Shown: piece after piece, positions 12,050-40,439 of the stretch
Numbering within the stretch: position 1 is the stretch's first letter
How the letters are laid out: the number at the start of each line of letters is the position of its first letter
Origin: an uncultured Clostridia bacterium
GTDB taxonomy: Bacteria > Bacillota > Clostridia > TANB77 > CAG-465
Direction of reading: 5' to 3'
DNA length: 64,000 nt
Assembly (NCBI GenBank): GCA_944386635.1
Contig: CALXBV010000021.1
Span: 293 to 64,292, forward strand
Notes under the pieces: generated by a model
Database searches by the model: none
Seen by the model: the letters and a program-made list of their open reading frames with translations, nothing else
Told to the model about the DNA's origin: nothing
Translations under genes and position numbers: made by a program

Positions 12050-13999
12050 CTATTTTCTTAAAAATCTTCTTTCTATTTCATATTTGGAAATAGGATAAGC
12101 TGTTGGTCTTCCATGAGGACAAGTAAATGGATTATCTAACTTAACCATTTGATCTATAAGACTTATCTGTTCCTTTGTATCTAGCTTCATATTTCCTTTT
12201 ACTGCAGCTTTACAAGCAAGAGTTGCTAAAAATCTAAACTCTTTTTCTGATTTTTCAGTTTTGCTTGCACCCATCATCTCTTCTATAATATCTCTAAACA
12301 TTGACTTATAGTCTATATCATATCCTATATTTGGCACTCCCGATATTTTTATTGTATCATCACCAAATTCTTCAATCATAAATCCACTTTTTTCAAACAT
12401 TTCTTTATTATTTAATACAATATCCATTTCTTTTGTAGATAATTTTACAAGAATTGGTATAAGTAATAGTTGAGTTTGCCTATCTTTAGAATAATATGCT
12501 TCTTTTATTTGTTCATATAATAATCTTTCATGTGCAGCGTGTTGATCAATTATATACATTTTATCTTCTATTTGGATAATTATATATGTATCAAATACAT
12601 TTCCAATATATTTATATAATATAGGTTCTTTCTCATCTTGTAACATTTCAGGCTTTTCTTCATATGTTTCAGTTTCAAATTTTGGTTTTTCTTCTAACTC
12701 CACTTGCTGTTCTTCAGATTGAGTATCTTGTGAAATATTATCTTGCTTTTCCACATTGTCCACAACTTCATTTTCTTTCTTATTTTCTTCTAATACTTCT
12801 GCATTGATATCTCCAATCTTTTCATTTAAACTTTCTATTAAACTATTACTATTACTTTGTTCAATAGGTTTATTATATAATTTTTTAGTTGCAGCCTCAA
12901 AATCGAACTTTTTCTCTTCTTTTTGAATTACTCCATTATTAATTAAATCTTTTGATATCTGCTCAACCTTTTGCTCTTCCTTTACAATAGAAAAAGGACT
13001 TGTCTCTTTATTATTCTTCTCCAAAGCACTTCTTACAGCATGATATATTATATCAAAAACTTTAGATTCATCAGAAAATTTTACTTCTAATTTTGCTGGA
13101 TGCACGTTAACATCTATATATGCTGGATTCACCTTTAAATCACACACAATAAATGGATGTTTATTTATAGCAAATTTCTGCTCACATGCCTTATCTATTG
13201 CTGTTGATATTGTTTTATCTTTTACATATCTAGTATTTATAAATGTATACTGATGCATTCTTGTAGATCTAGAAATAGAAGGGAGTCCAATCATTCCAGT
13301 AACTCTCATATCATCCATTTCATATTCTATTGGAACTACAGCATTATATATTTCTTTTCCAAATATATCATAAATAGTATCACGTAAATTTCCTGTTCCA
13401 GAAGTCTGAATTATTGTTTTTCCGTTATTTATATATCTAAAGCTTATATAAGGATTAGATAAAGCAATTCTTGTTACGACATCTTCTATATACCCTGCTT
13501 CTGTATAATCTTTCTTTAAAAATTTAAAACGTGCAGGTACATTATAAAAAACATCTCGTATTTCAATTTGTGTACCATCAACAGCTGGCACTTCCTGTTT
13601 TTCAACTATATTTCCAGCTTCAACTCTTACTTTTGTTCCAATATCTTCATTAATATTTTTAGTAGTAAGTGTTATTTTAGATATGGCTGCAACAGATGCT
13701 AGCGCCTCACCTCTAAATCCCATTGATGTTATTCTGCTCAAATCTTCTTCTTTTCTTATTTTACTTGTAGCATGACGCTCAAAAGCTAAATCTATATCAT
13801 CAGCTTTAAACCCAGTTCCATTATCGACAATTTTAATATAGCTAACTCCGCCTTTTCGTATCTCTATACTAATAGAAGTAGCTTTTGCATCTATTGAATT
13901 TTCAACTAGCTCTTTTACTATAGATGCAGGTCTATCCACAACTTCACCAGCAGCTATTTTATTAATTGTTTGTTCATCTAATAATACAATATCTCCCAT
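12050..13999 (-). CDS. mutL: DNA mismatch repair protein MutL
   Basis: 649 aa. N-terminal GHKL ATPase (NKIAAGEVVDRPASIVKELVENSIDA, GFRGEAL) and C-terminal dimerisation domain (QHAAHERLLYE). Confidence 0.95.
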   Translation of the reverse strand: MGDIVLLDEQTINKIAAGEVVDRPASIVKELVENSIDAKATSISIEIRKGGVSYIKIVDNGTGFKADDIDLAFERHATSKIRKEEDLSRITSMGFRGEALASVAAISKITLTTKNINEDIGTKVRVEAGNIVEKQEVPAVDGTQIEIRDVFYNVPARFKFLKKDYTEAGYIEDVVTRIALSNPYISFRYINNGKTIIQTSGTGNLRDTIYDIFGKEIYNAVVPIEYEMDDMRVTGMIGLPSISRSTRMHQYTFINTRYVKDKTISTAIDKACEQKFAINKHPFIVCDLKVNPAYIDVNVHPAKLEVKFSDESKVFDIIYHAVRSALEKNNKETSPFSIVKEEQKVEQISKDLINNGVIQKEEKKFDFEAATKKLYNKPIEQSNSNSLIESLNEKIGDINAEVLEENKKENEVVDNVEKQDNISQDTQSEEQQVELEEKPKFETETYEEKPEMLQDEKEPILYKYIGNVFDTYIIIQIEDKMYIIDQHAAHERLLYEQIKEAYYSKDRQTQLLLIPILVKLSTKEMDIVLNNKEMFEKSGFMIEEFGDDTIKISGVPNIGYDIDYKSMFRDIIEEMMGASKTEKSEKEFRFLATLACKAAVKGNMKLDTKEQISLIDQMVKLDNPFTCPHGRPTAYPISKYEIERRFLRK

Positions 14000-14082
14000 A
14001 GTAATCTCCTTTTTTTCATACTAATTATACTATTTTTTTATGATTTTTACAACAGACAGAAAAAAGCACAATAAATTTGTGC

Positions 14083-16686
14083 TTAATCTAACTTTTCTTT
14101 TAATTTATACAATACTTCCAAAGCATCTTTTGGTGTTAACTCATCTAAATCAATTTTTTCAAGCATACTTGTTACTTCTGCCATTTTATAATTAAACATA
14201 TCTACTTGCACTTCTTCTGTAGTTATTTTTTTCCTTTTTTCATCAATTGTCTTTTTAGCTAAATCTACATTTTCAAGATATTTTAGAATTTCTTTTGCAC
14301 GTGATATAACGCTCTTTTTGATTCCTGCTAACTTTGCAACATATATACCATATGACTCATCTGCTCCACCAGGCTTTATTTTCCTTAAGAAAATAACGTC
14401 ATCTCCTTTTTCCTTTACTTCAACTGAATAATTTTTTACTCCGTCTATTTTCTTTTCAAGTTCAATGAGTTCATGATAATGTGTTGCAAATAATGTTTTT
14501 GCACCTATTTTTTCTTTATCTGCAATATATTCAACTGTAGCCCATGCAATTGCTAGCCCATCATATGTTGATGTACCTCTTCCTATCTCATCTAATATTA
14601 CTAAACTATTTCTTGTAGCATTCTCTAAAATATTAGACAACTCTTGCATCTCAACCATAAATGTAGATTGTCCCATAGCCAGATCATCTGATGCGCCAAT
14701 TCTTGTAAATATTCTATCAACAATAGATATCTTAGCACTATCGGCAGATACAAAGCATCCAAGCTGTGCCATATACACAATCAGTGCTACCTGTCTCATA
14801 TACGTAGATTTACCAGCCATATTAGGTCCTGTTATTATTAAGAATCTATCATTATCATTACTTAAGTATGAATCGTTTGGTATAAATTGCTCATCTTTTA
14901 ATGCTTTTTCAACAACAGCATGTCTACCGTTTTTTATATCAATAATACCATCTTCTGTAATTTCAGGTTTTACATATTTATTATTTACAGCAACTGTTGC
15001 AAATGAACATAGAACATCTAATATTGACAAAATAGATGCTGTTTTTTGTATTCTTATTACTTGCTGTGCAACTTCTTCTCTTATCTTACAAAATAAATCA
15101 TATTCAACATCAACAAGTTTTTCCTTTGCTCCAAGTATTTTTTCTTCTATCTCTTTTAACTCTTCTGTTACATACCTTTCAGCTCCTGCAAGTGTTTGCT
15201 TACGAATATATCTATCTTCTGGTACTTGGTTTTTGTATGCGTTTGTTACCTCAATATAATATCCAAATACTCTATTATATCCAATTCTTAGCCACTTTCC
15301 TTTTATTCCTGTACGTTCTTTTTCTTTAGCTTCAAGTTCCATTAGCCAATCTTGTCCTTTAGAAGAAGCTAGCCTATATTCATCTACTTGCTTACTAAAT
15401 CCATCTTTGATTATTCCGCCTTCTTTTATAGTAACACTGGCATCTTCTATAATAGCTTTATCTATAAGTGTGTATACATCTTCTAATGTATCAATTGAAC
15501 TTAAAAATTCGCTAAAATAATTATCCTTTGTTTCACTTACAATTTTTCCTAGCAATTTCTTCAAGTCAGGTAATTTCATTAGTGAATTTTTAAGCGATAT
15601 CATTTCTCTTGCATTTACACTTCCACCTACAACTTTAGATATTAATCTTTCAATATCATATACAGACTTTAGTATCTCTTGTAACTCATCTCTATATATA
15701 TTATTTTTATACAATACGTCTACTGCATCTTGTCTTTTTTTAATTTCATTTATATTTAATAATGGTGACTCTAGCCAATGTCTTAGTGCTCTTCCCCCCA
15801 TTGCAGTTACAGTCTCATCCAATACCCATAAAAGACTTCCCTTCTTGGTCTTTTCTCTGTTTGCTTCTAATATTTCAAGATTTTTACGTGTTGTAGTATC
15901 TAATTGCATATACTTTTCAATCTCATATTTCTCTATATTATTTATTTGCTCAACTGAACCTTTTTGTGTCTCTTCTATATAATTTAATAATAGAGTTGCA
16001 GCAGCATTTTCTATTTGGCTTAATTGTATATCTTTATTTGTCATTATTTTGGATAATAATTCATTTTTTGAATCATTATTATATTTAGATATATATATAT
16101 TAAAAATTTTATTAATCTCTTTTAAAAATATAGCATTTTCTTTAGTATTATCAGATAAAATTATCTCAGATGGAGCGATTCTAGAGATCTCATTTAATAT
16201 TTTTGTATTTACATCTACTCCTTTAATACTAGAAATAAAAAACTCTCCTGTTGATATGTCACAAAATGAAATTGCACACTCTTTTTTTTCCATGTATATA
16301 CATGCAATGTAATTATTTTTCTTTTCATCCAACATTGTTAAATCTGTTATAGTTCCTGGAGTCACTATTTTAACAACATCTCTTTTTACAATACCTTTTG
16401 CATAACGAGGATCTTCTAGTTGCTCACAAATAGCTACTTTATATCCTTTCTCAATAAGTTTAGGAATATATGTATTTATTGCGTGATGTGGAATTCCACA
16501 CATTGGAGCTCTCTCCTCAAGTCCACAATCTTTACCTGTTAAAGTCAACTCCAACTCTTTACTAACAGTTATAGCATCATCAAAAAACATTTCATAAAAA
16601 TCACCAAGTCTATAAAATAAAATACAATCTTTATACTTTGCTTTTGTATCCAAATAATTTTGCATCATTGGTGTAACTGTTGCCAT
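14083..16686 (-). CDS. mutS: DNA mismatch repair protein MutS
   Basis: 867 aa. TPMMQQY-like N-terminus, Walker A GPNMAGKST, DEIGRGTSTYDG. Confidence 0.95.
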   Translation of the reverse strand: MATVTPMMQNYLDTKAKYKDCILFYRLGDFYEMFFDDAITVSKELELTLTGKDCGLEERAPMCGIPHHAINTYIPKLIEKGYKVAICEQLEDPRYAKGIVKRDVVKIVTPGTITDLTMLDEKKNNYIACIYMEKKECAISFCDISTGEFFISSIKGVDVNTKILNEISRIAPSEIILSDNTKENAIFLKEINKIFNIYISKYNNDSKNELLSKIMTNKDIQLSQIENAAATLLLNYIEETQKGSVEQINNIEKYEIEKYMQLDTTTRKNLEILEANREKTKKGSLLWVLDETVTAMGGRALRHWLESPLLNINEIKKRQDAVDVLYKNNIYRDELQEILKSVYDIERLISKVVGGSVNAREMISLKNSLMKLPDLKKLLGKIVSETKDNYFSEFLSSIDTLEDVYTLIDKAIIEDASVTIKEGGIIKDGFSKQVDEYRLASSKGQDWLMELEAKEKERTGIKGKWLRIGYNRVFGYYIEVTNAYKNQVPEDRYIRKQTLAGAERYVTEELKEIEEKILGAKEKLVDVEYDLFCKIREEVAQQVIRIQKTASILSILDVLCSFATVAVNNKYVKPEITEDGIIDIKNGRHAVVEKALKDEQFIPNDSYLSNDNDRFLIITGPNMAGKSTYMRQVALIVYMAQLGCFVSADSAKISIVDRIFTRIGASDDLAMGQSTFMVEMQELSNILENATRNSLVILDEIGRGTSTYDGLAIAWATVEYIADKEKIGAKTLFATHYHELIELEKKIDGVKNYSVEVKEKGDDVIFLRKIKPGGADESYGIYVAKLAGIKKSVISRAKEILKYLENVDLAKKTIDEKRKKITTEEVQVDMFNYKMAEVTSMLEKIDLDELTPKDALEVLYKLKEKLD

Positions 16687-22740: not shown

Positions 22741-22817
<77 letters not shown>

Positions 22818-23427: not shown

Positions 23428-23504
23428 GACTTTGTAACTCAGTTGGATAGAGTGCTTCCCTCCTAAGGAAGAAGTCGGCGGTTCAAATCCGCCCAAGGTC
23501 ACCA
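23428..23504 (+). tRNA. tRNA-Arg (anticodon CCT)
   Basis: GACTTTGTAACTCAGTTGGATAGAGTGCTTCCCTCCTAAGGAAGAAGTCGGCGGTTCAAATCCGCCCAAGGTCACCA. Anticodon stem CTTCC/GGAAG, loop CT-CCT-AA, encoded CCA. Confidence 0.9.
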
Positions 23505-28610: not shown

Positions 28611-28791
28611 ATCTATTTCACCTCAATTTATATCTTTTTTCGACATATATATTATACCATAACTTTATGAAAAGTAAATAAACAAAAATTACAGTATTGT
28701 CACATATTGAATATCATTTTATACTATGTTATAATTAATCTACATTTCAAATATTTAACTACAAAATAATTTTAGAAAAGAGGTGTTTATT

Positions 28792-29463
28792 ATGACTAAT
28801 AATAAAAATAATACTATATTAAGATTTTATTTACTAACAACAACTTTAAAAAATAAAATACGTCAAGGCTCAATATACTGGAATGTTACATCAAATAGAA
28901 GAGAAAGTATAGCTGAACATGTATATGACACTTGTATGCTTGCAATTGCAATAGACTCAGAATATGATTTAAAAATAGATATAAAAAAAGTAATAGAAAT
29001 GCTTGCTATACATGAGTTAGAAGAAATAATAATAGGTGACATTACTCCATTTGATAATGTAAGTAATGAAGAAAAGCTAAAAATAGGTAAAAAAGCTGTG
29101 CTCGATATTCTTAATGGTATGAAAAAAGAGCAAGAATATACTAAACTTACTGATGAGTTCAATTCTAGAGAAACTAAAGAAGCAAAATTCGCTTATTTAT
29201 GTGACAAGCTAGACTTTGACTTACAAATGAAACTATATTCTGACCAAGGCTATATAAATCTAGATACAAAATCTAATAGTCCAGTTTTCAGAAATAAAAG
29301 AGTACAAAATATTCTTAAAAATGGTGCAACTTCAGCTCCTGAAGTATTTTATAATTATGATGTCGATAAATATATTAATTACCCTGAATTTAAGAGATTA
29401 TTAGACTATGCATATTCTAATAATCTTAATGATTTATTAAATAATTATTTAAAAAATATATGA
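28792..29463 (+). CDS. HD-domain 5'-deoxynucleotidase (YfbR-like)
   Basis: ESIAEHVYDTCMLA ... AIHELEEIIIGDITP (H..HD/HE..D pattern). Start placed at the ATG at 28792, behind AGAGGTG. Confidence 0.7.
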   Translation: MTNNKNNTILRFYLLTTTLKNKIRQGSIYWNVTSNRRESIAEHVYDTCMLAIAIDSEYDLKIDIKKVIEMLAIHELEEIIIGDITPFDNVSNEEKLKIGKKAVLDILNGMKKEQEYTKLTDEFNSRETKEAKFAYLCDKLDFDLQMKLYSDQGYINLDTKSNSPVFRNKRVQNILKNGATSAPEVFYNYDVDKYINYPEFKRLLDYAYSNNLNDLLNNYLKNI

Positions 29464-31750: not shown

Positions 31751-31981
31751 TTATTTTATGTTTATATAATATTCAGTTAATAAGATATCTTGATATACAT
31801 CTAATTTTATAACAATACACGTTAATGATAAAGCTATTACTAATAAAATACAAGCTGTAACTTGCAATATTTTATTTAAATATTCTTTCCTTTTTATTAT
31901 ACTATATGTATTAAACATATTACTTGGTATAACTACTTCATCATATTTTTGCTTCAATATATCATCTATTTTTACCCTCAT
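31751..31981 (-). CDS. putative anti-sigma factor (single TM)
   Basis: Start placed at the ATG at 31981, behind GGAGGA. Overlaps the sigma gene by 20 nt. One TM segment (ILQVTACILLVIALSLTCIVI). Confidence 0.5.
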   Translation of the reverse strand: MRVKIDDILKQKYDEVVIPSNMFNTYSIIKRKEYLNKILQVTACILLVIALSLTCIVIKLDVYQDILLTEYYINIK

Positions 31982-32504
31982 AAATTTTTCCTCCATATTT
32001 TTCTTTAATCTTCATCTTTATTCTTCTTATTTTTGTTCTAATTGTATTTTCATTAATATTTAAAACTTGTCCTATTTCTGCAGTAGTGTATCCGCGAGAA
32101 AAATATAAAACAACTATTGTTCTTTCATCTTTAGATAAAAAATCTATTAAATTAAAAAAATCCATGTCACTATCTACTTCTATATATTCATCATTTACTT
32201 CAAAATAATTATCACATTCTAAGTCGTCATATGAATAAAAGTTCCTTACTTTATCTCTTAATATATTATTACAATTGTTAATTAAAACTCTAGTTATCCA
32301 TCCATTGAAAGAATCATTATTTTTTAAATTAATTATGTTTTTATATGCTTGATATATGGTTTCTTGTACAGCATCCTTAATATCGGCATCTTGATCTAAT
32401 CTACTTTTAGCAATAACATATAATTTTCTCTCATATAGTTCAATTAATTTAGCAAAGGCATCCTTATCTCCTTCTTTTGATTTTTTAATTAAATTTTCTT
32501 CCAT
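31962..32504 (-). CDS. ECF-type RNA polymerase sigma factor
   Basis: 180 aa. Region 2 (DAVQETIYQAY) and region 4 HTH (GYTTAEIGQVLNINENTIRTKIRRIK). Confidence 0.8.
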   Translation of the reverse strand: MEENLIKKSKEGDKDAFAKLIELYERKLYVIAKSRLDQDADIKDAVQETIYQAYKNIINLKNNDSFNGWITRVLINNCNNILRDKVRNFYSYDDLECDNYFEVNDEYIEVDSDMDFFNLIDFLSKDERTIVVLYFSRGYTTAEIGQVLNINENTIRTKIRRIKMKIKEKYGGKIYEGKNR

Positions 32505-32599
32505 ATTTTCCCCTCTTCTTTATTCCACAAAAATTATATCATAAAAAATAGGATTTAGGTATTTCTTTCCTAAATCCCAATAATGATTTTAGAGTAAAT

Positions 32600-33361
32600 T
32601 TATTCATTAGTAATATATGTATCTATATACTCTTGTAATGATTCGTACTCTCCAGTTTCATTATTTTTTATCTTCAATGAAGATATGTCTAGATTCTGAA
32701 CAGCAACCCTTGATTTATTTTGTTGTATATTTAGTTCTCTCAAACCATTTCCAAGTCCTATTACCTCGTATTGACCATCTGCATTTTCTTTCAAATATAC
32801 TAAATAGCTCTTTCCAGATTCTATTTCTATATCTCCAGATATTAATACATTAATGTAAGTGTTATTTAAGTCTATATCAACATTATTTTCTGAACGTAGA
32901 TATTCACGCTTTAAATTAGCTGCTTCTGGTTGATATTCTTCCCACTCAGACATTTTCATTACTCCTCCTGGTTTAGTATATTCTATAACTTGTCCTTGCT
33001 GTAAATCCCCTTGAAGTACTGTATCAATGAGCATTTTACCATCTGTCATGCCTATTAAACTACCTTCAGGATCTGCACCATCTAATGATATAACAGTAGC
33101 TAAAGCTATACAATCAGCATCCTCACCTAATTTATTTGGTGTAAATTCTTCTGTTAAACAAAGTTCAGTAACACAATCATAAGTGGATTTTTTAACATCA
33201 TCTGTAATATAACTTGTTACTTCATATGTTTGTTCTTCAACATTCGAATCCTCTTTAACCTCACCATATAGATTGTCATTTTTTATTTTGTACCCAACTA
33301 ATGCTGTAAAATACATTAGTATAGTAATACTTGCAACAACAATAACAATCTTCTTTTTCAT
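32600..33361 (-). CDS. secreted or membrane-anchored protein of unknown function
   Basis: Start placed at the ATG at 33361, behind AGGGGAGGA. Signal-anchor sequence MKKKIVIVVASITILMYFTALV. Lies directly upstream of the ECF sigma gene. Confidence 0.55.
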   Translation of the reverse strand: MKKKIVIVVASITILMYFTALVGYKIKNDNLYGEVKEDSNVEEQTYEVTSYITDDVKKSTYDCVTELCLTEEFTPNKLGEDADCIALATVISLDGADPEGSLIGMTDGKMLIDTVLQGDLQQGQVIEYTKPGGVMKMSEWEEYQPEAANLKREYLRSENNVDIDLNNTYINVLISGDIEIESGKSYLVYLKENADGQYEVIGLGNGLRELNIQQNKSRVAVQNLDISSLKIKNNETGEYESLQEYIDTYITNE

Positions 33362-33516
33362 AAGCATTCCTCCCCTTTTTAAATAACTTACATTTGATAA
33401 CATGTGAGCTAAACACAAAGCTGTATAAATCAATATTGCCAATCTTTAACTGCATCTACTATAATAGACGAATAACTTTTATATTTTGTTTCAAGGGCAA
33501 AAAAAAATCCTAAAAA

Positions 33517-34014
33517 TTACTTTTTAAGATTTTTTTCTATTATTTTGTTATTTTTTATTATAATATGTTCCAATTTATTTGGTAAATTATTTAACACATT
33601 ATTTTTTAAAAATTCAGGTTTAAAATTAGCAATACTATTAATATCTAGCCATTTAAACTCTAAATATGTATTATCCCACTCTATTTTAGTAAAATTATTA
33701 ATATTTATATTATCTTTTGTATCTAATAGATAGTAAAAACCTAACTCATGACATTTAACATTATTACTATCAAAAAAATTTTCAACTACATATAGCAATC
33801 TTTTTACATAAACATCTATACCTGTTTCCTCTTTAAATTCTCGTATAATTGCATCTATAGTATCTTCATTTAATTCAACATGTCCACCAGGTAAGCAAAA
33901 AAACTTATTATTATTTATTCTAACGCATAAAACTCTATCATTTTTTATCAATATACCTGACACTCTATATTTAAATCTATAATTTTGTTTTTCTATCTCT
34001 ATATCCATATTCAT
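33517..34014 (-). CDS. Nudix hydrolase
   Basis: 165 aa. Nudix box GGHVELNEDTIDAIIREFKEETG. Begins 10 nt after the radical SAM gene. Confidence 0.85.
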   Translation of the reverse strand: MNMDIEIEKQNYRFKYRVSGILIKNDRVLCVRINNNKFFCLPGGHVELNEDTIDAIIREFKEETGIDVYVKRLLYVVENFFDSNNVKCHELGFYYLLDTKDNININNFTKIEWDNTYLEFKWLDINSIANFKPEFLKNNVLNNLPNKLEHIIIKNNKIIEKNLKK

Positions 34015-34024
34015 TATTTTCTCA

Positions 34025-34921
34025 CTAAATTGACTTTGTATCTATATATTTAGCTGGCTTAACATTAAAATTAACAGGTTGTGATAGAGCAGCTATTATA
34101 TTTTTTCTAATATTACCATCTAGATATTTTATATCATTTTCATCAGATTGTATACACTGTTTTAGCTTTCCAGAACTTGTTACCCTCAAATGCATTTTTT
34201 TGCAAACATCACACTCTCTTATTCTACAATGTGAATGGAAAAATGTTACAGCAGTAAAACCGTTTTCATCTATACCATGATATTCTTTAAATACATCATC
34301 AAACTTAGAAATAAGTTTAAAATCTGATAATACTCTATCTTTCATCTTTAAATATTCTATATCAGTAGTTTCAGCTACTTCATTTTTTACTTCCTCTAAT
34401 ATTTTTATTCTTATTTTATTGTGTATTGCCCAATTAACTAAATTATATAAATTTTCATAATCACCATTATACACAGTAGAAATTGTAACATTAACACCTG
34501 TATTCTTTACTTTTAATATATTTTCTAAAGCTTGCTTAGAACTTATTCCAATAGGTGATTGTTTAGATACTGGAGCATCGTAGTAATCTAATCCTACCAC
34601 TACTCTATATATCCATCCCTTCTCAATCATATACATTAATTTATCTATTTCCACTATATTTGTATTTATTCCCACCTTTAAATGATATTTTTCAGCAAGC
34701 ATTTGACAGATATCATAAATTTCTTTATGAATAAGTGGCTCTCCTCCAGTAAGTCTCACTTGCTCTAAGCCCAATCCATATGAATTTTGTATTAGCTTTT
34801 CAATATCATCTTTAGATAATTGATTGATTACCTTATTACCCTCATTATGACAATATACACATTTCATATTACATCCTGATGTTATAGATATTCTATATTC
34901 ATTTTTTGGCAACTGTAACAT
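34025..34921 (-). CDS. MoaA-like radical SAM enzyme
   Basis: 298 aa. CNMKCVYC (CxxxCxxC), LTGGEPL, and a C-terminal second-cluster region HCRIRECDVCKKMHLRVTSSGKLKQC resembling the MoaA C-terminus. Confidence 0.75.
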   Translation of the reverse strand: MLQLPKNEYRISITSGCNMKCVYCHNEGNKVINQLSKDDIEKLIQNSYGLGLEQVRLTGGEPLIHKEIYDICQMLAEKYHLKVGINTNIVEIDKLMYMIEKGWIYRVVVGLDYYDAPVSKQSPIGISSKQALENILKVKNTGVNVTISTVYNGDYENLYNLVNWAIHNKIRIKILEEVKNEVAETTDIEYLKMKDRVLSDFKLISKFDDVFKEYHGIDENGFTAVTFFHSHCRIRECDVCKKMHLRVTSSGKLKQCIQSDENDIKYLDGNIRKNIIAALSQPVNFNVKPAKYIDTKSI

Positions 34922-34940
34922 TTTAATTCCCCTCTTTCTA

Positions 34941-35714
34941 TTAATATCTCTTTTTTCCCAAATCTATTCTTAAATCACTAAAATCTATATTATATTTACG
35001 AGTAGCATATTTATATAATTGCCTAATTCTTTCAATCTTATCTTCTTTTGATATTCCCTCTTCTATTGCATTAAAAAATAGTTGTATAAATTCTTTTTCG
35101 GGTATTATCTTATGTTGTGCTTTTTGTAACTTTTCATTTGTATATAACTTATATATTTTCGTTTGAGATAAATTAGAAAATCCATTTAATTTATGATAAA
35201 AATCTCTTATTCTTTCAACAGTTAAAAAATAATAACTTTCAAAATAAGGATCATTTTGTATCTTTAATTCATTTAATGCCAGTACTGCTTTATGAATTCC
35301 AGCAATTTGATATATTGCTTCATGTTTAGTATAACATGGAAGTGGTCTAGAATATTTTTCCTTTATATAACTAACCAAATCTGCTACTTTTCCACTTCTA
35401 TCAAAAATTACTTCTCCGTATCCAATTATTGATAATAATGAATCTTCACATTTCATATAATCAGAATTAGCTCTTTCATATATCTTTGATATAGTTCTTT
35501 CAAAATACTCAACTTGCATTCCATTTACATCTTTATATCCTTTTATTTGATTTGTATCTGAATCATCATTATATAATACCATTAAGTCTATATCTGAAAA
35601 CTCATTTGCAGTTTGAGTATGAAAACTACCATAAAAAACTATTCCTTCTACTTCATCATTTTTAAGATAGTTCATATCATCAATAAACTTATTTAAAGCT
35701 TCTCTATAATTCAT
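34941..35714 (-). CDS. Pol-beta-fold nucleotidyltransferase with a helical C-terminal domain (Lnu/KNTase-like)
   Basis: Start placed at the ATG at 35714, behind GAGGTG. FYGSFHTQTANEFSDIDLMV (GS...DxD). The ~150-aa helical C-terminal domain contains RIRDFYH. Confidence 0.7.
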   Translation of the reverse strand: MNYREALNKFIDDMNYLKNDEVEGIVFYGSFHTQTANEFSDIDLMVLYNDDSDTNQIKGYKDVNGMQVEYFERTISKIYERANSDYMKCEDSLLSIIGYGEVIFDRSGKVADLVSYIKEKYSRPLPCYTKHEAIYQIAGIHKAVLALNELKIQNDPYFESYYFLTVERIRDFYHKLNGFSNLSQTKIYKLYTNEKLQKAQHKIIPEKEFIQLFFNAIEEGISKEDKIERIRQLYKYATRKYNIDFSDLRIDLGKKRY

Positions 35715-35767
35715 AAAACACCTCAAAAAAAATCCAATAGAAATAAAAATTATTTCCACTGGACATA

Positions 35768-35796
35768 ATTATAACATATAATGCTATGTTTTTCAA
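35768..35796 (-). promoter_or_regulatory. sigma-A promoter of the NTase/radical-SAM/Nudix operon
   Basis: The minus strand reads TTGAAA, a 17-nt spacer ending TGT, then TATAAT (extended -10). It lies about 55 nt upstream of the ATG. Confidence 0.6.
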
Positions 35797-35835
35797 TACT
35801 GCAATAGTAATATTTTACATAAATTAATTGCATAA

Positions 35836-35994
35836 TTATTTAAGCTTTATTATTATTTTTTTATGATCTATTTTCATATCTTCAATTTCTCGCTCTTTTA
35901 GCTCTAAAGGTACATTATCTATATTCCCCGAATAAATAATATCATTATTTTGATATATATCTACATTATAACATCTTATATCTTTAATCCACAT
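35836..35994 (-). CDS. small hypothetical protein (52 aa), missing from the ORF track
   Basis: Own translation: MWIKDIRCYNVDIYQNNDIIYSGNIDNVPLELKEREIEDMKIDHKKIIIKLK. The ATG lies 8 nt after the stop of the YlbF-like gene, behind GGTGA. Confidence 0.35.
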   Translation of the reverse strand: MWIKDIRCYNVDIYQNNDIIYSGNIDNVPLELKEREIEDMKIDHKKIIIKLK

Positions 35995-36002
35995 AATATC
36001 AC

Positions 36003-36341
36003 CTAAAATTTAACTAGTTCTTCAATAGCTTCACCCATAGACTTTTGTAAATCAGCTAATATAACATTTATTTTCATTTCACATTCTAAAATTTTTCTAC
36101 AATCTTCATTTTGTATGACAATAGAATATAAATTCTCCATTTCTTGTTGTTTTTCTTTTGTTATATCTTTTCCATTTATGTAGCTAATTTGAACTTCATT
36201 TTGCTTTTCTTTGAAATCTTTTAGCATGTTATATACATTCTCATCTTTTTTTAAATCTTCTTTTAATTTTAAATACTCTTTATATTCTTGTGTTTGCTTA
36301 AATGAAGACACAAGATTGCTAATATCATCATGAAAACTCAT
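36003..36341 (-). CDS. YlbF/YmcA family regulatory protein
   Basis: The family pattern fits: FKQTQEYKEYLKLKEDLKKDENVYNMLKDFKEKQ plus a C-terminal helical region. Start placed at the second ATG, at 36341. Confidence 0.6.
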   Translation of the reverse strand: MSFHDDISNLVSSFKQTQEYKEYLKLKEDLKKDENVYNMLKDFKEKQNEVQISYINGKDITKEKQQEMENLYSIVIQNEDCRKILECEMKINVILADLQKSMGEAIEELVKF

Positions 36342-36404
36342 TAATATCATCCTTTCTTTAGGATAATATTATATATCATTTTTTTCTTTTTTTAAATGTT
36401 TTAT

Positions 36405-37097
36405 TTAAAATTCATCTAAACTAGTACAAATATCATACTGCACTTTTGTAAGCTTTTGTTTTCTTCTATTTACAAGTTCAGTTATATTTTGAATTATATT
36501 ATTCTCGTTTATACAATCATTATTAAATAATACTTTTGATTTTAATTTATTTAACTTACCAGCTATATTTTTTATTTCATTAATATTAAAACTATCATAT
36601 GCATCATACCAATCATTACATAGCTCTTTAAAATCATCCACTTTATTTAAGCACTTTTCCACACTAGAATATATTTTCTTTTTAAATTCAGTACTTGAAA
36701 TAAAATTTTTTATTCCTCCAAAGAAATCATCTATATAATTAAAAAATATATTACCATATTTTTTTCCAGCACTTACTATATCAATTCCTAAATTTATACA
36801 ATTTGTAAGTCCACCTTTAAAAGCAGTATCTATCATTTTATTGATTTCTTTTATATTATCATCTGATATTCCCATCATTTCTAAGCCTTCTCTTATACTA
36901 CTTGTAAGTGCCACATTTAATATTTGTAAAAAATCCTTTTCTTTTAATACTTTTTTTACATCAGATAAAATCTCTTTAATATGCTCATTAACGGGCATTC
37001 CTTTTATTACGTAATTTGCACCCTTATCTATAACATTTAATATTATATTTATTATCTCTTCTTTATTTTTTTCTATTTCAACTTCTGATTCTTTCAT
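36405..37097 (-). CDS. hypothetical helical protein
   Basis: 230 aa. Begins 2 nt after the ATPase gene. No TM segment and no recognised motif. Confidence 0.5.
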   Translation of the reverse strand: MKESEVEIEKNKEEIINIILNVIDKGANYVIKGMPVNEHIKEILSDVKKVLKEKDFLQILNVALTSSIREGLEMMGISDDNIKEINKMIDTAFKGGLTNCINLGIDIVSAGKKYGNIFFNYIDDFFGGIKNFISSTEFKKKIYSSVEKCLNKVDDFKELCNDWYDAYDSFNINEIKNIAGKLNKLKSKVLFNNDCINENNIIQNITELVNRRKQKLTKVQYDICTSLDEF

Positions 37098-37099
37098 TT

Positions 37100-38227
37100 T
37101 TACTCCTCCTTCATATTTACTAACTTATTTATTATTTTGTTTTTCACATTTTCAAATCTTATAACTCCTATAGATTTTAATAACCTTTTTATATTATATT
37201 TAATGTAAATCTTATTATCAGTTGATATATACTTGTCTATAAAAATACTATTTTTTATAATACCATAAAAACTGATTCCAATTTTCTTTTCTAATAAATT
37301 TATTATATCTTTTTTTCCGCAAAACATATTTGCTATAAATTTACTTTTCTTTACAACTTTTTCATCTATAAATTTTGTCTGTATATTATATTCTCTTACA
37401 GTATTATGAGAAATCTTAATACAAAAAATAATATCTACATTTATACTTTCTAATACATTATAAATGTTATTTATCATAAGTGTAGATGTATCTACTATCA
37501 CATAATCATAAAATCTTTTTAAATATAATAATATCTCTATAATAATATCAGTACATAAAGTAGATACACATTTAGAATTTAATATGTATTTAAGATTCTC
37601 ATATTTATCACTATCACTTTGATAGTCTACTATGTCCTTTAGTTCATTATTTTTAATATCTTCTATTAAGCTACTTAAAGCATAATTTTTACTACTTTTT
37701 ACATATATATCTAAACTTGGATATATAAGATCTAGATCTACAACAACCACACTTTTATATGTATTTCTAGCTATTTCTTCAGATAATATTTTACAAAATA
37801 TTGTTTTACCGGACTTTCTTAAACCAGTCACAATTATAATATTACTTTTTTCCTCTTTAGTTTTATATATTACCATTTTAGGATTATTTATATTATCTAA
37901 AATTTCATCAAAAGGAACTGTATCTCCAACTATAATATTAAATATTTCTTTAGAAAAAAGTTTTTCTTTTATATCTTTTGTTATCTCTTTTAATATTACA
38001 ATAATTCTATTTTTACTGTTCTTATCTTTTATATTACATAGATAATCTATAAAACTCATTTTACCATGAAGAGCATCTCTTGTTATTATAATAAAAGATT
38101 CATTTAAATTAATCATTTCTAATACTTGTTCCTTTGTTTTTAAAATATAAACTTCATATTTATCACAATATACATCTTTAATTCTTTTTTCTAAATATTT
38201 ACTATTGATTGCTATTATCATTTTCAT
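37100..38227 (-). CDS. P-loop ATPase with an N-terminal pseudo-receiver domain (TadZ/CpaE-like architecture)
   Basis: 375 aa. The N-terminal ~115 aa are CheY-like but lack the acidic pocket (IIAINSK rather than DD). Walker A GLRKSGKT. VVVVDLDLIYPSLD and VIVDTS strings resemble MinD/ParA-class proteins. Overlaps the upstream ORF by 26 nt. Confidence 0.6.
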   Translation of the reverse strand: MKMIIAINSKYLEKRIKDVYCDKYEVYILKTKEQVLEMINLNESFIIITRDALHGKMSFIDYLCNIKDKNSKNRIIVILKEITKDIKEKLFSKEIFNIIVGDTVPFDEILDNINNPKMVIYKTKEEKSNIIIVTGLRKSGKTIFCKILSEEIARNTYKSVVVVDLDLIYPSLDIYVKSSKNYALSSLIEDIKNNELKDIVDYQSDSDKYENLKYILNSKCVSTLCTDIIIEILLYLKRFYDYVIVDTSTLMINNIYNVLESINVDIIFCIKISHNTVREYNIQTKFIDEKVVKKSKFIANMFCGKKDIINLLEKKIGISFYGIIKNSIFIDKYISTDNKIYIKYNIKRLLKSIGVIRFENVKNKIINKLVNMKEE

Positions 38228-40439
38228 TTAAAAGTATCCTTTCGTATTCATTTGCTATTACCACAATTGGTGCTTTATTGTTTGATACAGAAAGTATAGC
38301 CTCTCCCTTTTGCAAGCAATCCACATTAAAATCTGATAAATCTATAAATTTATTTAAACTATCTGTATCTTTATATGTCATTTTAAATATCAATTTAAAA
38401 GACGAATTATTTAATATGCTCTTTGCATAAATACCATTATCATAAGTAAAAAAATCGTTAATATCTTGAGTTATAGTTATAATTGAAGCTTTTCTTTTTC
38501 TTATTGTCTTATACATATTAGATATACTTAATAATAAGTCTTTGCTTTGTGCATATTTCCACATTTCATCTATATATATAATTGTATTTTTATCATTTAA
38601 ATAATTATTTGCCAAACTATCTAAGATATAACTTATAATTTTAGCATTATTTTTTAAATACTTTGTATCGATTACATATAAGCTATTATCTAAAGATATA
38701 TTTGTTATATTAGAAAAAAATTTAATATCATTTTCTATCATATCATTTAAAATATTTTTTAAATGATAGTTATCTATAATATTTAACAGATCATTTAATG
38801 TAGGAAATTTATCATTGTCTATAAAAACATTGTCTAAATATATTAAATTATCATCTTCATTTTTAAATATTGTACTTATATCATTAGTTATATTAAATTT
38901 ATTATATATTTCTTTTAATTTAATTTTTAAATATTCTTTATACGTATTTTCAATATCACATACTTTGATTAAAAAATTTACTATTTTTTCTATCTTTTCT
39001 TGTAAATAATTACTTACATCATCTACTTTATCAATATCTTTTTTAGTTATTTGTAATATATTAAAATACTTACCACCACTTATATTCTGTCCTTCTATAT
39101 TACTACAAAGCTTTATATACTCACTCTCGATATCAAAAACTATCTGCTTCATATTCTTAAAAAAGTTTCTTATAATGTTTAACTTAACAAAATATGATTT
39201 TCCACTTCCACTGCTTCCAAATATGCACATATTAGAATTTTCATATTTATCTGCGAATATGTCTAATATACATATTTTATTGTCCATTTTAGTATATCCT
39301 ACTAATACTCCATTTATATCTATAAAATTATTACTAATATATGGAAAAATATTTGCTAAACTACTACTGGTTAAGAAAATATTATACTTATTATTTTTTT
39401 GTAAAGGTAAATTAGAAAGATAATAATTTAAATGTCTGAAATTAGTAACTTCCGAAATAAAATTTTTTGAATAAAGTTTTGCTTTAAAATTTGATACACT
39501 CTTATATAAAGCTGTTAAATCCTCTGAATAAAAAGTTAATATAATATTTACATTGAATACTTCCTGATTTTCAATTTGTATCTTTTTACGTAATTCTTTT
39601 GCCTCCCTAGATGATTGATTTATTATATCCATATTATTTTGATTAACTTTAGTAGTATGCTTTTCACTCTCAGATAGACCTATTGTATAAGTAATATCAT
39701 TTAGTACTTTATATGTATCTAATTTTTTTATATAAATAGACATATCATAATCTATATTTTTATCTATATCATTTATTAAATCTAAAAAGAAAATGTACTC
39801 TGGCAAAGAAATAATATGTAAGGATATAACATATTTGTTACCTACTATGATATATTTAAAATTAGTATTGTCAACAAAATCTGGTAAAACCTCATTTATG
39901 TCTATAATATCACCTCTTTATTAATAGTCTCATACATTAATACTTGTAATTTTTTCTTAGATACTATTCTTTTAGTTTTGCATCCAATATTATCTATACC
40001 ACGTACTATATTATCTATACTATTAATGTCATATGAAAAATCTTCTTTCAACGAGACTACTAAATAAAACTTTGTAGTATATATTTTTTCTTTTTCTAAC
40101 TGGGCTCCAATACTATAAATATAATTATTAACATGTTCCAAATACTTTTTACTTCCATTTTTATTTATATAGATTTTAAGATTGGATATATATTTTTGAA
40201 TATTAATTTTTTTATTTGATATATAAATTTGAAAATCAAAATTAAGTTCACGAAGAAATTCACTATAAAGATTTAAAATATTAGATTGAACATCTATTGA
40301 AAAATTTAAAAATGTAACTGGTTCAACTTCATAAATATACACTTTTTTTACAATGTCTTTTTCTTTAACTAGTATATATTTATCTGTTATATCTATAAGA
40401 TTAAATATTTCTTTTACATCACCATATTTTATTAGTCAT
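38202..40439 (-). pseudogene. VirB4/TrsE-like conjugation-type ATPase, reading frame broken twice
   Basis: The C-terminal 534-aa frame has Walker A GSSGSGKS, IVFDIESEY, Walker B IIYIDEMWKY and ITITQD. The N-terminal domain (YIYEVEPVTFLNFSIDVQSNILNLYSEFLRELNFDFQI) is in another frame and ends with TAG at 39902. The only RBS-plus-ATG (GGAGGGG-ATG at 40439) reads MTNKIW-stop, and the long frame opens 1 nt later. Confidence 0.6.

Follow-up and report, generated by a model that had tools for sequence, protein, structure and literature searches.

A rare, conserved cassette of nucleotidyltransferase, radical SAM and Nudix genes in uncultured gut Clostridia, with a probable function in nucleotide modification

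The window considered here is a stretch of 64,000 nucleotides (64 kb) from an uncultured Clostridia bacterium (contig CALXBV010000021.1, positions 293 to 64,292). It carries a compact operon encoding a nucleotidyltransferase (NTase), a MoaA-like radical SAM protein (rSAM) and a Nudix hydrolase. As a cassette, the trio is both rare and conserved among uncultured gut Clostridia, and its three genes are co-inherited across deep divergence and different genomic contexts. The rSAM is MoaA-like in fold but is not MoaA: it is a distinct, uncharacterised offshoot of the MoaA lineage. Most likely, the cassette makes or processes a modified nucleotide. With moderate confidence, it is read as a self-contained, nucleotide-centred pathway whose product, a non-canonical nucleotide or nucleoside, would act as an antimetabolite, in competition or antiviral defence, rather than as a cofactor precursor. 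The three genes follow one another in the same orientation on the minus strand (33517-35714), all coordinates being positions in the window:

34941-35714, minus strand: NTase gene, 257 amino acids (aa)
34025-34921, minus strand: rSAM gene, 298 aa
33517-34014, minus strand: Nudix gene, 165 aa
35796..35768, minus strand: sigma-70-type promoter, TTGAAA-17 nt-TATAAT with an extended -10 TG (TG-n-TATAAT), 11/12 consensus positions

The three genes form one transcription unit, and the existence, compactness and conservation of the operon are confirmed. The open reading frames (ORFs) were found where the initial annotation had drawn a self-contained operon, with gaps of 19 nt (NTase/rSAM) and 10 nt (rSAM/Nudix). 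The listed NTase ORF began at a GTG codon (35759); the true start is the ATG of MNYREAL (35714), as indicated by conservation and by the GAGGTG ribosome-binding site ahead of it. Gene calls on identical metagenome contigs likewise give an NTase of 257 aa. The near-consensus promoter described earlier is intergenic and is kept in eight related loci, whose rSAM proteins are 75-91% identical; L104, L112, L105, L110, L005, L017 and L108 retain both hexamers as well as the TG. Promoter-like hexamers in this AT-rich DNA (~25% GC) occur at chance level, with 25 found vs. 26.4 expected.

Neighbouring genes of 62 loci of the rSAM family were clustered and profile scans were added, which resolved six architectures. 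The linkage of the trio, noticed at first in one genome, extends to close and distant relatives: architecture A presents NTase, rSAM and Nudix in a fixed order, over rSAM identities of 43-100% and in at least five genomic contexts. It comprises the window lineage (75-100%, with shared flanks), L011 (58%), L019/L133 (50%), L100/L101 (46%) and L023 (43%). The flanking genes differ between these groups; therefore, the cassette moves as a unit. Identities of 78, 58, 50 and 43% for the rSAM correspond to 75, 42, 37 and 32% for the NTase and to 54-57, 45, 44 and 37% for the Nudix protein. Two loci depart from the pattern: L120 has a kinase, the NTase and the rSAM without Nudix, and L012 has a convergent NTase, also without Nudix. 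In a rough neighbor-joining tree, architecture A occupies at least two deep branches, interleaved with architectures B and C.

A protein of the dTMP-kinase type, a P-loop protein of 225-290 aa, joins the cassette in L011, L019/L133, L120, L100 and L023. It displays the motifs IEGxDGxGKxT and DR and matches dTMP kinase weakly; the L019 copy also weakly matches VakA, the viperin-associated kinase. Against the PDB, its matches are restricted to the level of adenylate kinases and P-loop proteins. L100 and L023 carry a second, different radical SAM protein and L100, in addition, a Ppx/GppA phosphatase.

The other architectures surround the rSAM with other partners. Architecture B (L009:1768-7826, L111, L113 and L129) consists of a C39-like peptidase, a 111-aa protein, YcaO, a protein of ~320 aa, the rSAM, a short Nudix protein and an S51 peptidase, the last two being fused in L111. 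It usually adjoins a rel (RelA/SpoT) gene and may constitute a peptide-nucleotide pathway or one resembling those of RiPPs (ribosomally made peptides with post-translational modifications). Its ~320-aa protein (C34, 321 aa) has an HHDIDL motif and, in two of the four members, weak matches to NTP_transf_5 and ANT(2''). No PDB match was obtained for it, and an hhalign comparison with the KNTase-like family was negative (probability 0.2). Because the Pfam matches are weak and the PDB and hhalign results negative, C34 is only tentatively regarded as a putative NTase replacement.

Architecture C combines a glycosyltransferase (GT)-like protein, the rSAM, an unknown protein, an APH-like kinase and DUF1919. 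In architecture D (L122:2160-5441, L123-L127, L130 and L138), DUF1919, the rSAM, an APH-like kinase and a HIT hydrolase adjoin argS; the kinase and the HIT protein appear to stand in for NTase and Nudix. The match of the APH-like kinase in the sister branch is below threshold. Architecture E is an rSAM group adjoining a dicarboxylate symporter. Architecture F was found in Endomicrobiellum from the termite gut (L018:2541-8423 and L020): a B12-binding radical SAM protein, the rSAM, a pyruvate-kinase-barrel protein, NTP_transf_5 (132 bits) and an MFS transporter. It resembles a cluster for small-molecule biosynthesis that includes an exporter, and in L020 a number of its genes are fragmented.

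The rSAM is placed by its motifs and by its fold neighbors, which are twitch/SPASM enzymes, in the SPASM/twitch subgroup of the radical SAM superfamily. Pfam assigns Radical_SAM (74.5 bits) and Fer4_12 (30.3 bits), with Mob_synth_C at 16.5 vs. a cut-off of 37.4. The initial annotation had attributed to it both an N-terminal CxxxCxxC and a MoaA-type C-terminal cluster region, and these cysteines do align with those of MoaA: C17-x3-C21-x2-C24 (CX3CX2C) is accompanied by a GGEP motif, and C237-x2-C240-x15-C256 correspond to C261/C264/C278. Among the 62 aligned family sequences, C21 and C24 are invariant and C17 nearly so. The invariant positions also include HNEGN (25-29), R56-T58-G59-G60, S119-K120-x-S122, C232, C237, C240, R246 and C256, and the loops YCHNEGN and SKxSPxGxSSK are invariant and specific to the family. 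The AlphaFold2 model (pLDDT, the predicted local distance difference test, of 93.1) is closest in Foldseek template modeling (TM) score to MoaA (0.71-0.77), followed by viperin (~0.65) and AbmM (0.62); SuiB, BlsE and DesII are also predicted neighbors, SuiB being first by E-value. Like the MoaA/MOCS1A GTP 3',8-cyclase (Staphylococcus aureus structures 1tv7, 2fb2 and 2fb3), the modeled protein would have a partial TIM barrel and a twitch domain, besides the SAM motifs and the three C-terminal cysteines.

Several features separate the rSAM from MoaA. MoaA models are its top profile matches, yet all of them remain beneath their curated cut-offs (TIGR02666, 118.2/284 bits; TIGR02668, 115.8/325; NF001199, 102.1/231), and its identity to annotated MoaA proteins is 24-26%. 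Placed in this way by profile and structure, the MoaA-like designation stands for the fold, not for the identity of the enzyme. In bacterial and eukaryotic MoaA, the C-terminal GG tail is essential, and guanine is bound by the strictly conserved arginines R17, R266 and R268 (PMC9026282). The MoaA auxiliary 4Fe-4S cluster is held by three cysteines (CX2CX13C), which leaves one iron free for N1 of GTP as the fourth ligand (PMC9026282). These residues were compared in an alignment of the Listeria and Geobacillus MoaA with the window rSAM and six other family members. Both MoaA proteins end in ...IGG, whereas the seven family proteins stop ~35-40 residues sooner and none has GG; C-termini are variable across the 62-sequence alignment. 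R10 (MoaA R17) and R246 (R268) are conserved, and R56/T58 correspond to R71/T73. At the position of R266, which follows a two-residue insertion, the window rSAM has H, and the family H, Q or N. Finally, a fourth cysteine, C232 (CX4C upstream), is present in 62/62 family sequences and absent from true MoaA, the spacing being otherwise CX2CX15C. C232 may supply the remaining ligand of the auxiliary cluster.

The same comparison bears on one alternative, a housekeeping MoaA for the synthesis of the molybdenum cofactor (Moco), located away from the other moa genes. MoaA provides the top profile models and the structures with the highest TM score, and one metagenome pipeline gave two rSAM relatives the name 'cyclic pyranopterin phosphate synthase'. 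The initial annotation had seen no moaC, moaB, moaD/E or moeA gene in the window, and tblastn with eight Listeria proteins (ModA, MoeA, MobB, MoaE, MoaD, MoaC, MoaB and MoeB) indeed found none in the 64 kb. With the same queries, Moco genes adjoin the rSAM family in 0/62 loci, whereas at true-MoaA loci, used as a positive control, moaC was found in 30/88, moaB in 26/88, moeA in 25/88 and moaE in 22/88. Moreover, the family occurs in about five of 185,579 species genomes. Of five features of MoaA membership, the rSAM misses four: the model scores, the GG tail, R266 and the association with Moco genes. On the fifth, an auxiliary cluster with exactly three cysteines, the protein is ambiguous, since the three align and C232 is added. 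Because of these four failures, a housekeeping Moco role is very unlikely, to the point of being scarcely credible. Automatic pipelines nonetheless risk labeling the family as Moco biosynthesis, as already happened with the two relatives.

For the NTase, the Pfam matches are limited to residues 16-61 (Polbeta, 32.9 bits; NTP_transf_2, 29.8 bits). The catalytic set is G29-S30...D41-x-D43...E69/E72; across 58 homologs, G24, Y28, G29, S40, D41, D43 and E72 are invariant and S30 and E69 nearly so. Single-sequence and profile searches against solved structures gave matches to the core motif alone, with E above 1e-3; hence, structure prediction was required to place the protein. In the AlphaFold2 model (pLDDT 94.6), a Pol-beta N-terminal domain is followed by a helical C-terminal domain. 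Foldseek retrieves ANT(4') first (6p06/1kny/6un8; TM 0.58-0.60, E about 1e-8 to 1e-9), then the uncharacterized 3c18, ANT(4')-IIb and LinB and, much more weakly, Hailong HalB. The predicted fold is the two-domain ANT(4')/KNTase type, with GS, DxD and a third carboxylate. The label 'Lnu/KNTase-like' given in the initial annotation is accurate at the fold level, even if the identity to ANT(4')-Ia, ANT(4')-IIb and LinB is just 10-15% (TM 0.5-0.6). That annotation had also placed an R-x5-H string in a helical substrate domain: the domain is present in the model, while the string is not conserved, its H being replaced by N or E in relatives. An interpretation of R-x5-H as a HEPN-like motif was dropped on the same grounds.

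The predicted fold could suggest an antibiotic-resistance cassette, with an NTase inactivating aminoglycosides or lincosamides in the manner of the ANT enzymes and the other genes as accessories. The top structural matches, ANT(4')-Ia, ANT(4')-IIb and LinB, share with the NTase a Pol-beta core, a helical substrate domain and the GS...DxD...E set. Against this stands the low identity, with no significant sequence match past the GS/DxD core and no resistance-family model reached among Pfam and NCBIfam. Resistance ANTs act alone, whereas here an rSAM and a Nudix protein are co-inherited over a long divergence. The NTase family is chromosomal, no mobile-element genes flank the window copy, and no similar DNA or protein was found in 72,556 plasmids. 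Resistance is accordingly held to be highly improbable.

Members of this KNTase-like family also occur without the rSAM, either next to Ham1 and HD genes, next to HD_3 or downstream of rpsI. Stand-alone homologs adjoining HD_3, HD or Ham1 (ITPase) genes include those of L099 and L102, and one homolog is fused to a WDGH domain. In the window itself, an HD_3/YfbR-like 5'-deoxynucleotidase is encoded on the plus strand (28783-29463), ~4 kb off the operon. The Ham1, HD and HD_3 neighbors hint that the NTase family itself is linked to non-canonical nucleotide metabolism.

The third protein is a Nudix hydrolase, as initially proposed. It scores 52.9 bits with the Pfam NUDIX model, and the Nudix box GX5EX7REUXEEXGU is intact, as read off the sequence GHVELNEDTIDAIIREFKEETGI. 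Its best solved relative is 2pqv, a MutT/nudix protein of Streptococcus without a known substrate (67.6 bits), and no substrate-specific equivalog model was reached. The gene is co-linear with the rSAM in 31/62 family loci. No curated profile model specifically names any of the three operon proteins.

The rSAM family is small. A word-indexed search returned 241 relatives, 48-100% identical and almost all from gut or digester metagenomes. Scanning one genome per species (185,579) yielded five members, three in uncultured Clostridia and two in Candidatus Endomicrobiellum. Members share at least 40% identity among themselves, and everything else in these species genomes is at most 31% identical. 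With HMMER, 46 of 1.84 billion representative proteins were found at E <= 1e-30, and ~30 of full length scored above 225 bits; scores under 225 bits blend into a MoaA continuum near 120 bits. The family size is estimated at about 30-45 sequence clusters. The names of cluster members supplied no annotation. The family is monophyletic with respect to MoaA in the rough neighbor-joining tree, which is unbootstrapped.

A chemistry concerning a nucleotide or a nucleotide-linked molecule is strongly suggested, because the recurrent partners handle nucleoside phosphates, the nearest folds act on nucleotides and the equivalents of R17 and R268 are kept. The partners in question comprise NTases from two or more families (with the tentative third one of architecture B), Nudix or HIT hydrolases, the dTMP-kinase-like kinase and Ppx/GppA. 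The nearest rSAM folds, MoaA, AbmM, BlsE and viperin, are all nucleotide- or nucleoside-acting enzymes. Like the initial annotation, we infer an unusual nucleotide-derived molecule, be it a signal, an antimetabolite or the result of antibiotic modification; the context of kinase, second radical SAM protein, Ppx/GppA and HIT in place of Nudix strengthens this. Antibiotic resistance is the least supported of these options.

We infer the order of the steps, the substrate and the biological role as follows. A nucleoside phosphate would be raised to the di- or triphosphate, by the associated kinase in the fuller cassettes and by housekeeping kinases in the window genome. The rSAM would take a hydrogen from the ribose or the base of a nucleotide, or of a nucleotide-linked small molecule, with a rearrangement or elimination to follow. 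This step is proposed because such chemistry is that of its nearest structural neighbors MoaA (GTP), AbmM (cytidine nucleotide), BlsE and viperin (CTP). The NTase would couple the modified nucleotide to an acceptor or, alternatively, attach a nucleotide handle for the rSAM. The Nudix hydrolase would then cleave a pyrophosphate, either freeing the mature product or preventing the build-up of a reactive triphosphate.

A role type of this kind is known from specialized metabolism, where the MoaA-related radical SAM enzymes AbmM and BlsE act on cytidine nucleotide or nucleoside substrates. Of the solved structures, AbmM, from the thionucleoside pathway of albomycin (8wm2), matches the rSAM best in sequence (49.8 bits, in an alignment spanning the N-terminal half). 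AbmM and BlsE, the latter from blasticidin S synthesis (7vob), are neighbors in predicted fold, with 14-16% identity over that fold. Their pathways belong to actinomycete antibiotic clusters with other partner genes, in contrast to the three-gene cassette of gut Clostridia.

Several observations weigh against a nucleotide antimetabolite. The window cassette is without the associated kinase, and the NTase-rSAM link is not obligate, since the NTase family occurs alone. K69, N124 and K163 of MoaA, which we take to be among the residues binding the GTP triphosphate, are not kept in the rSAM alignment. In the window lineage (75-100% identity), the cassette sits in a stable chromosomal neighborhood, and a PADLOC scan for defense genes among the partner and flanking proteins recognized no system. 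Defense islands usually differ from such stable, non-mobile, defense-poor neighborhoods. The rSAM family was not found in the phage and plasmid collections: megablast of the operon against them returned nothing, tblastn of the rSAM against PLSDB and INPHARED returned ordinary MoaA alone (23-26% identity) and a scan of IMG/VR gave no relative. Finally, two sister architectures sit among GT-like, DUF1919 and GT-D genes; hence, the substrate could be a sugar or sugar nucleotide and the end use the decoration of the cell surface.

Such company would fit a tailoring module acting on a sugar, a cyclitol or another cell-surface small molecule. The NTase, or an APH-like kinase in its place, would activate a hydroxyl or phosphate, the rSAM would carry out a radical oxidation or elimination of the DesII/BtrN type on the activated sugar and Nudix, or HIT, would remove the nucleotide handle. 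The predicted NTase fold is indeed that of enzymes adenylylating hydroxyls of aminoglycosides and lincosamides, DesII and BlsE are among the structural neighbors of the rSAM, and GT1-like, GT-D-like, DUF1919 and APH-like genes accompany the sister architectures. The Endomicrobiellum variant resembles a biosynthetic cluster with an exporter, and the genes beside the L023 cassette were read by eye as a putative dlt cell-wall operon. The window-type cassette itself, on the contrary, has no glycosyltransferase, exporter or sugar-pathway gene. The extra partners (the dTMP-kinase-like kinase, Ppx/GppA and the second radical SAM protein) indicate nucleotides over sugars, and the equivalents of the MoaA nucleotide contacts R17 and R268 are retained. 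On balance, a tailoring function is considered quite unlikely.

Within the nucleotide pathway, a viperin-like antiviral system would be a special case, and an unlikely one. During phage infection, the rSAM would turn a cellular nucleoside triphosphate (NTP) into a chain-terminating or toxic analog, with the kinase feeding substrate, and the Nudix and NTase proteins would limit self-toxicity or amplify the effect. Prokaryotic viperins (pVips) linked to nucleotide kinases are comparable in several respects: both radical SAM proteins reside in short kinase cassettes, have a rare, patchy distribution (at least five or six genomic contexts for the rSAM family) and possess comparable folds (TM ~0.65). 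By analogy, the shared logic would likely be the conversion of an NTP into a non-canonical nucleotide. The rSAM scores 50 and 49 bits with PADLOC pVip models, the cassette kinase weakly matches VakA, the Nudix protein matches the PADLOC candidate PDC-S07 (41 bits) and the NTase, weakly, PDC-S09; HalB, a structural neighbor of the NTase, is a defense NTase. These PADLOC matches, however, represent generic, domain-level similarity, and the higher-scoring pVip match ends at profile position 219/257. With the viperin family model NF038283, the rSAM reaches 39 bits vs. a cut-off of 180. Viperins have no auxiliary Fe-S site, whereas the rSAM has a C-terminal site of four cysteines. No known defense genes flank the cassette, its chromosomal position is stable in the window lineage and its promoter is strong and constitutive-looking. 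To our knowledge, pVip loci are also without a pair of ANT-fold NTase and Nudix.

Taken further, the nucleotide pathway could represent a new radical SAM route to a non-canonical nucleotide, distinct from both the cyclization by MoaA and the dehydration by viperin. Its auxiliary cluster would be fully ligated by cysteines, and the NTase and Nudix would turn the product into an antimetabolite or an effector of immunity for gut Clostridia. This is a tentative and somewhat doubtful proposal. As far as we know, MoaA is usually regarded as having a single function, and few MoaA-fold enzymes with another chemistry have been described. With each of viperin, AbmM and BlsE, a bioactive product and a new kind of radical reaction on nucleotides came to light. 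The searched literature contained no description of a system of rSAM/MoaA-like, Nudix and nucleotidyltransferase proteins, nor a relevant link to anti-phage or conflict systems. If the product were an antimetabolite or antiviral nucleotide, nucleotide-based immunity or competition within the gut microbiome would gain a second radical SAM arm through the cassette. A small, clean family with diagnostic motifs, a conserved three-gene context and three proteins of soluble size makes the proposal directly testable in vitro.

In one lineage of the trio, the rSAM gene itself shows a change of frame. At L019:8165-8180, and also in L131-L134, L144 and L157, one extra C precedes the GGEP codons (AC[TA] C GGA GGA GAA). 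Frame 0 stops 11 codons past it, and the +1 frame is open for 225 codons. Seven independent assemblies agree in the sequence of the site. Between two lineages with 20% nucleotide difference, the +1 frame is under purifying selection, with a pN/pS (ratio of nonsynonymous to synonymous changes) of 0.25. The gene looks like a candidate for programmed +1 frameshifting, with a rare CGG codon ahead of a Shine-Dalgarno-like GGAGGAG, rather than a dead gene.

A structured leader lies between the promoter and the ribosome-binding site of the NTase gene:

35724..35764, minus strand: leader with a 15-bp hairpin and a U8 run (hairpin-U8, 35764..35732)

It is the sole terminator-like site within 33200-36100. 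The RNA folds with -16.4 kcal/mol (z = -3.8 vs. shuffled sequence), and the stem is maintained by compensatory changes in relatives. An Rfam search of the leader and the surroundings of the operon matched no RNA family. The hairpin could serve to stabilize the 5' end of the mRNA, to attenuate transcription or to terminate the upstream ylbF-like unit.

Upstream of the operon, a block of six genes occupies 36003-40342 on the minus strand. It encodes a 146-aa ORF (with a TraC-like Pfam match for the L005 counterpart), a VirB4/TraG-type P-loop ATPase of 534 aa, a 375-aa ATPase (AAA_31 for the L005 counterpart), an unknown protein of 230 aa, a YlbF/YmcA-like protein and a 52-aa ORF. The order of the block is kept in all close relatives (75-91% rSAM identity), which marks it as syntenic chromosomal DNA and not as a conjugative element inserted recently. 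An origin of the trio from a conjugative element or plasmid, considered for the TraC-like and VirB4-like genes, was rejected, as the block is syntenic and does not accompany the trio in its other contexts.

After the trio, the minus strand encodes a membrane protein, a sigma factor of the extracytoplasmic function (ECF) type and a small membrane protein (31751-33442). In the unrelated context of L019, too, an ECF sigma factor and a membrane protein are encoded a few genes further downstream (12763-14399); the recurrence may be a coincidence or a regulatory link. The sole RNA genes detected in the window are a divergent pair of tRNA-Arg genes, at 22741-22817 on the minus strand and 23428-23504 on the plus strand, with anticodons ACG and CCT.

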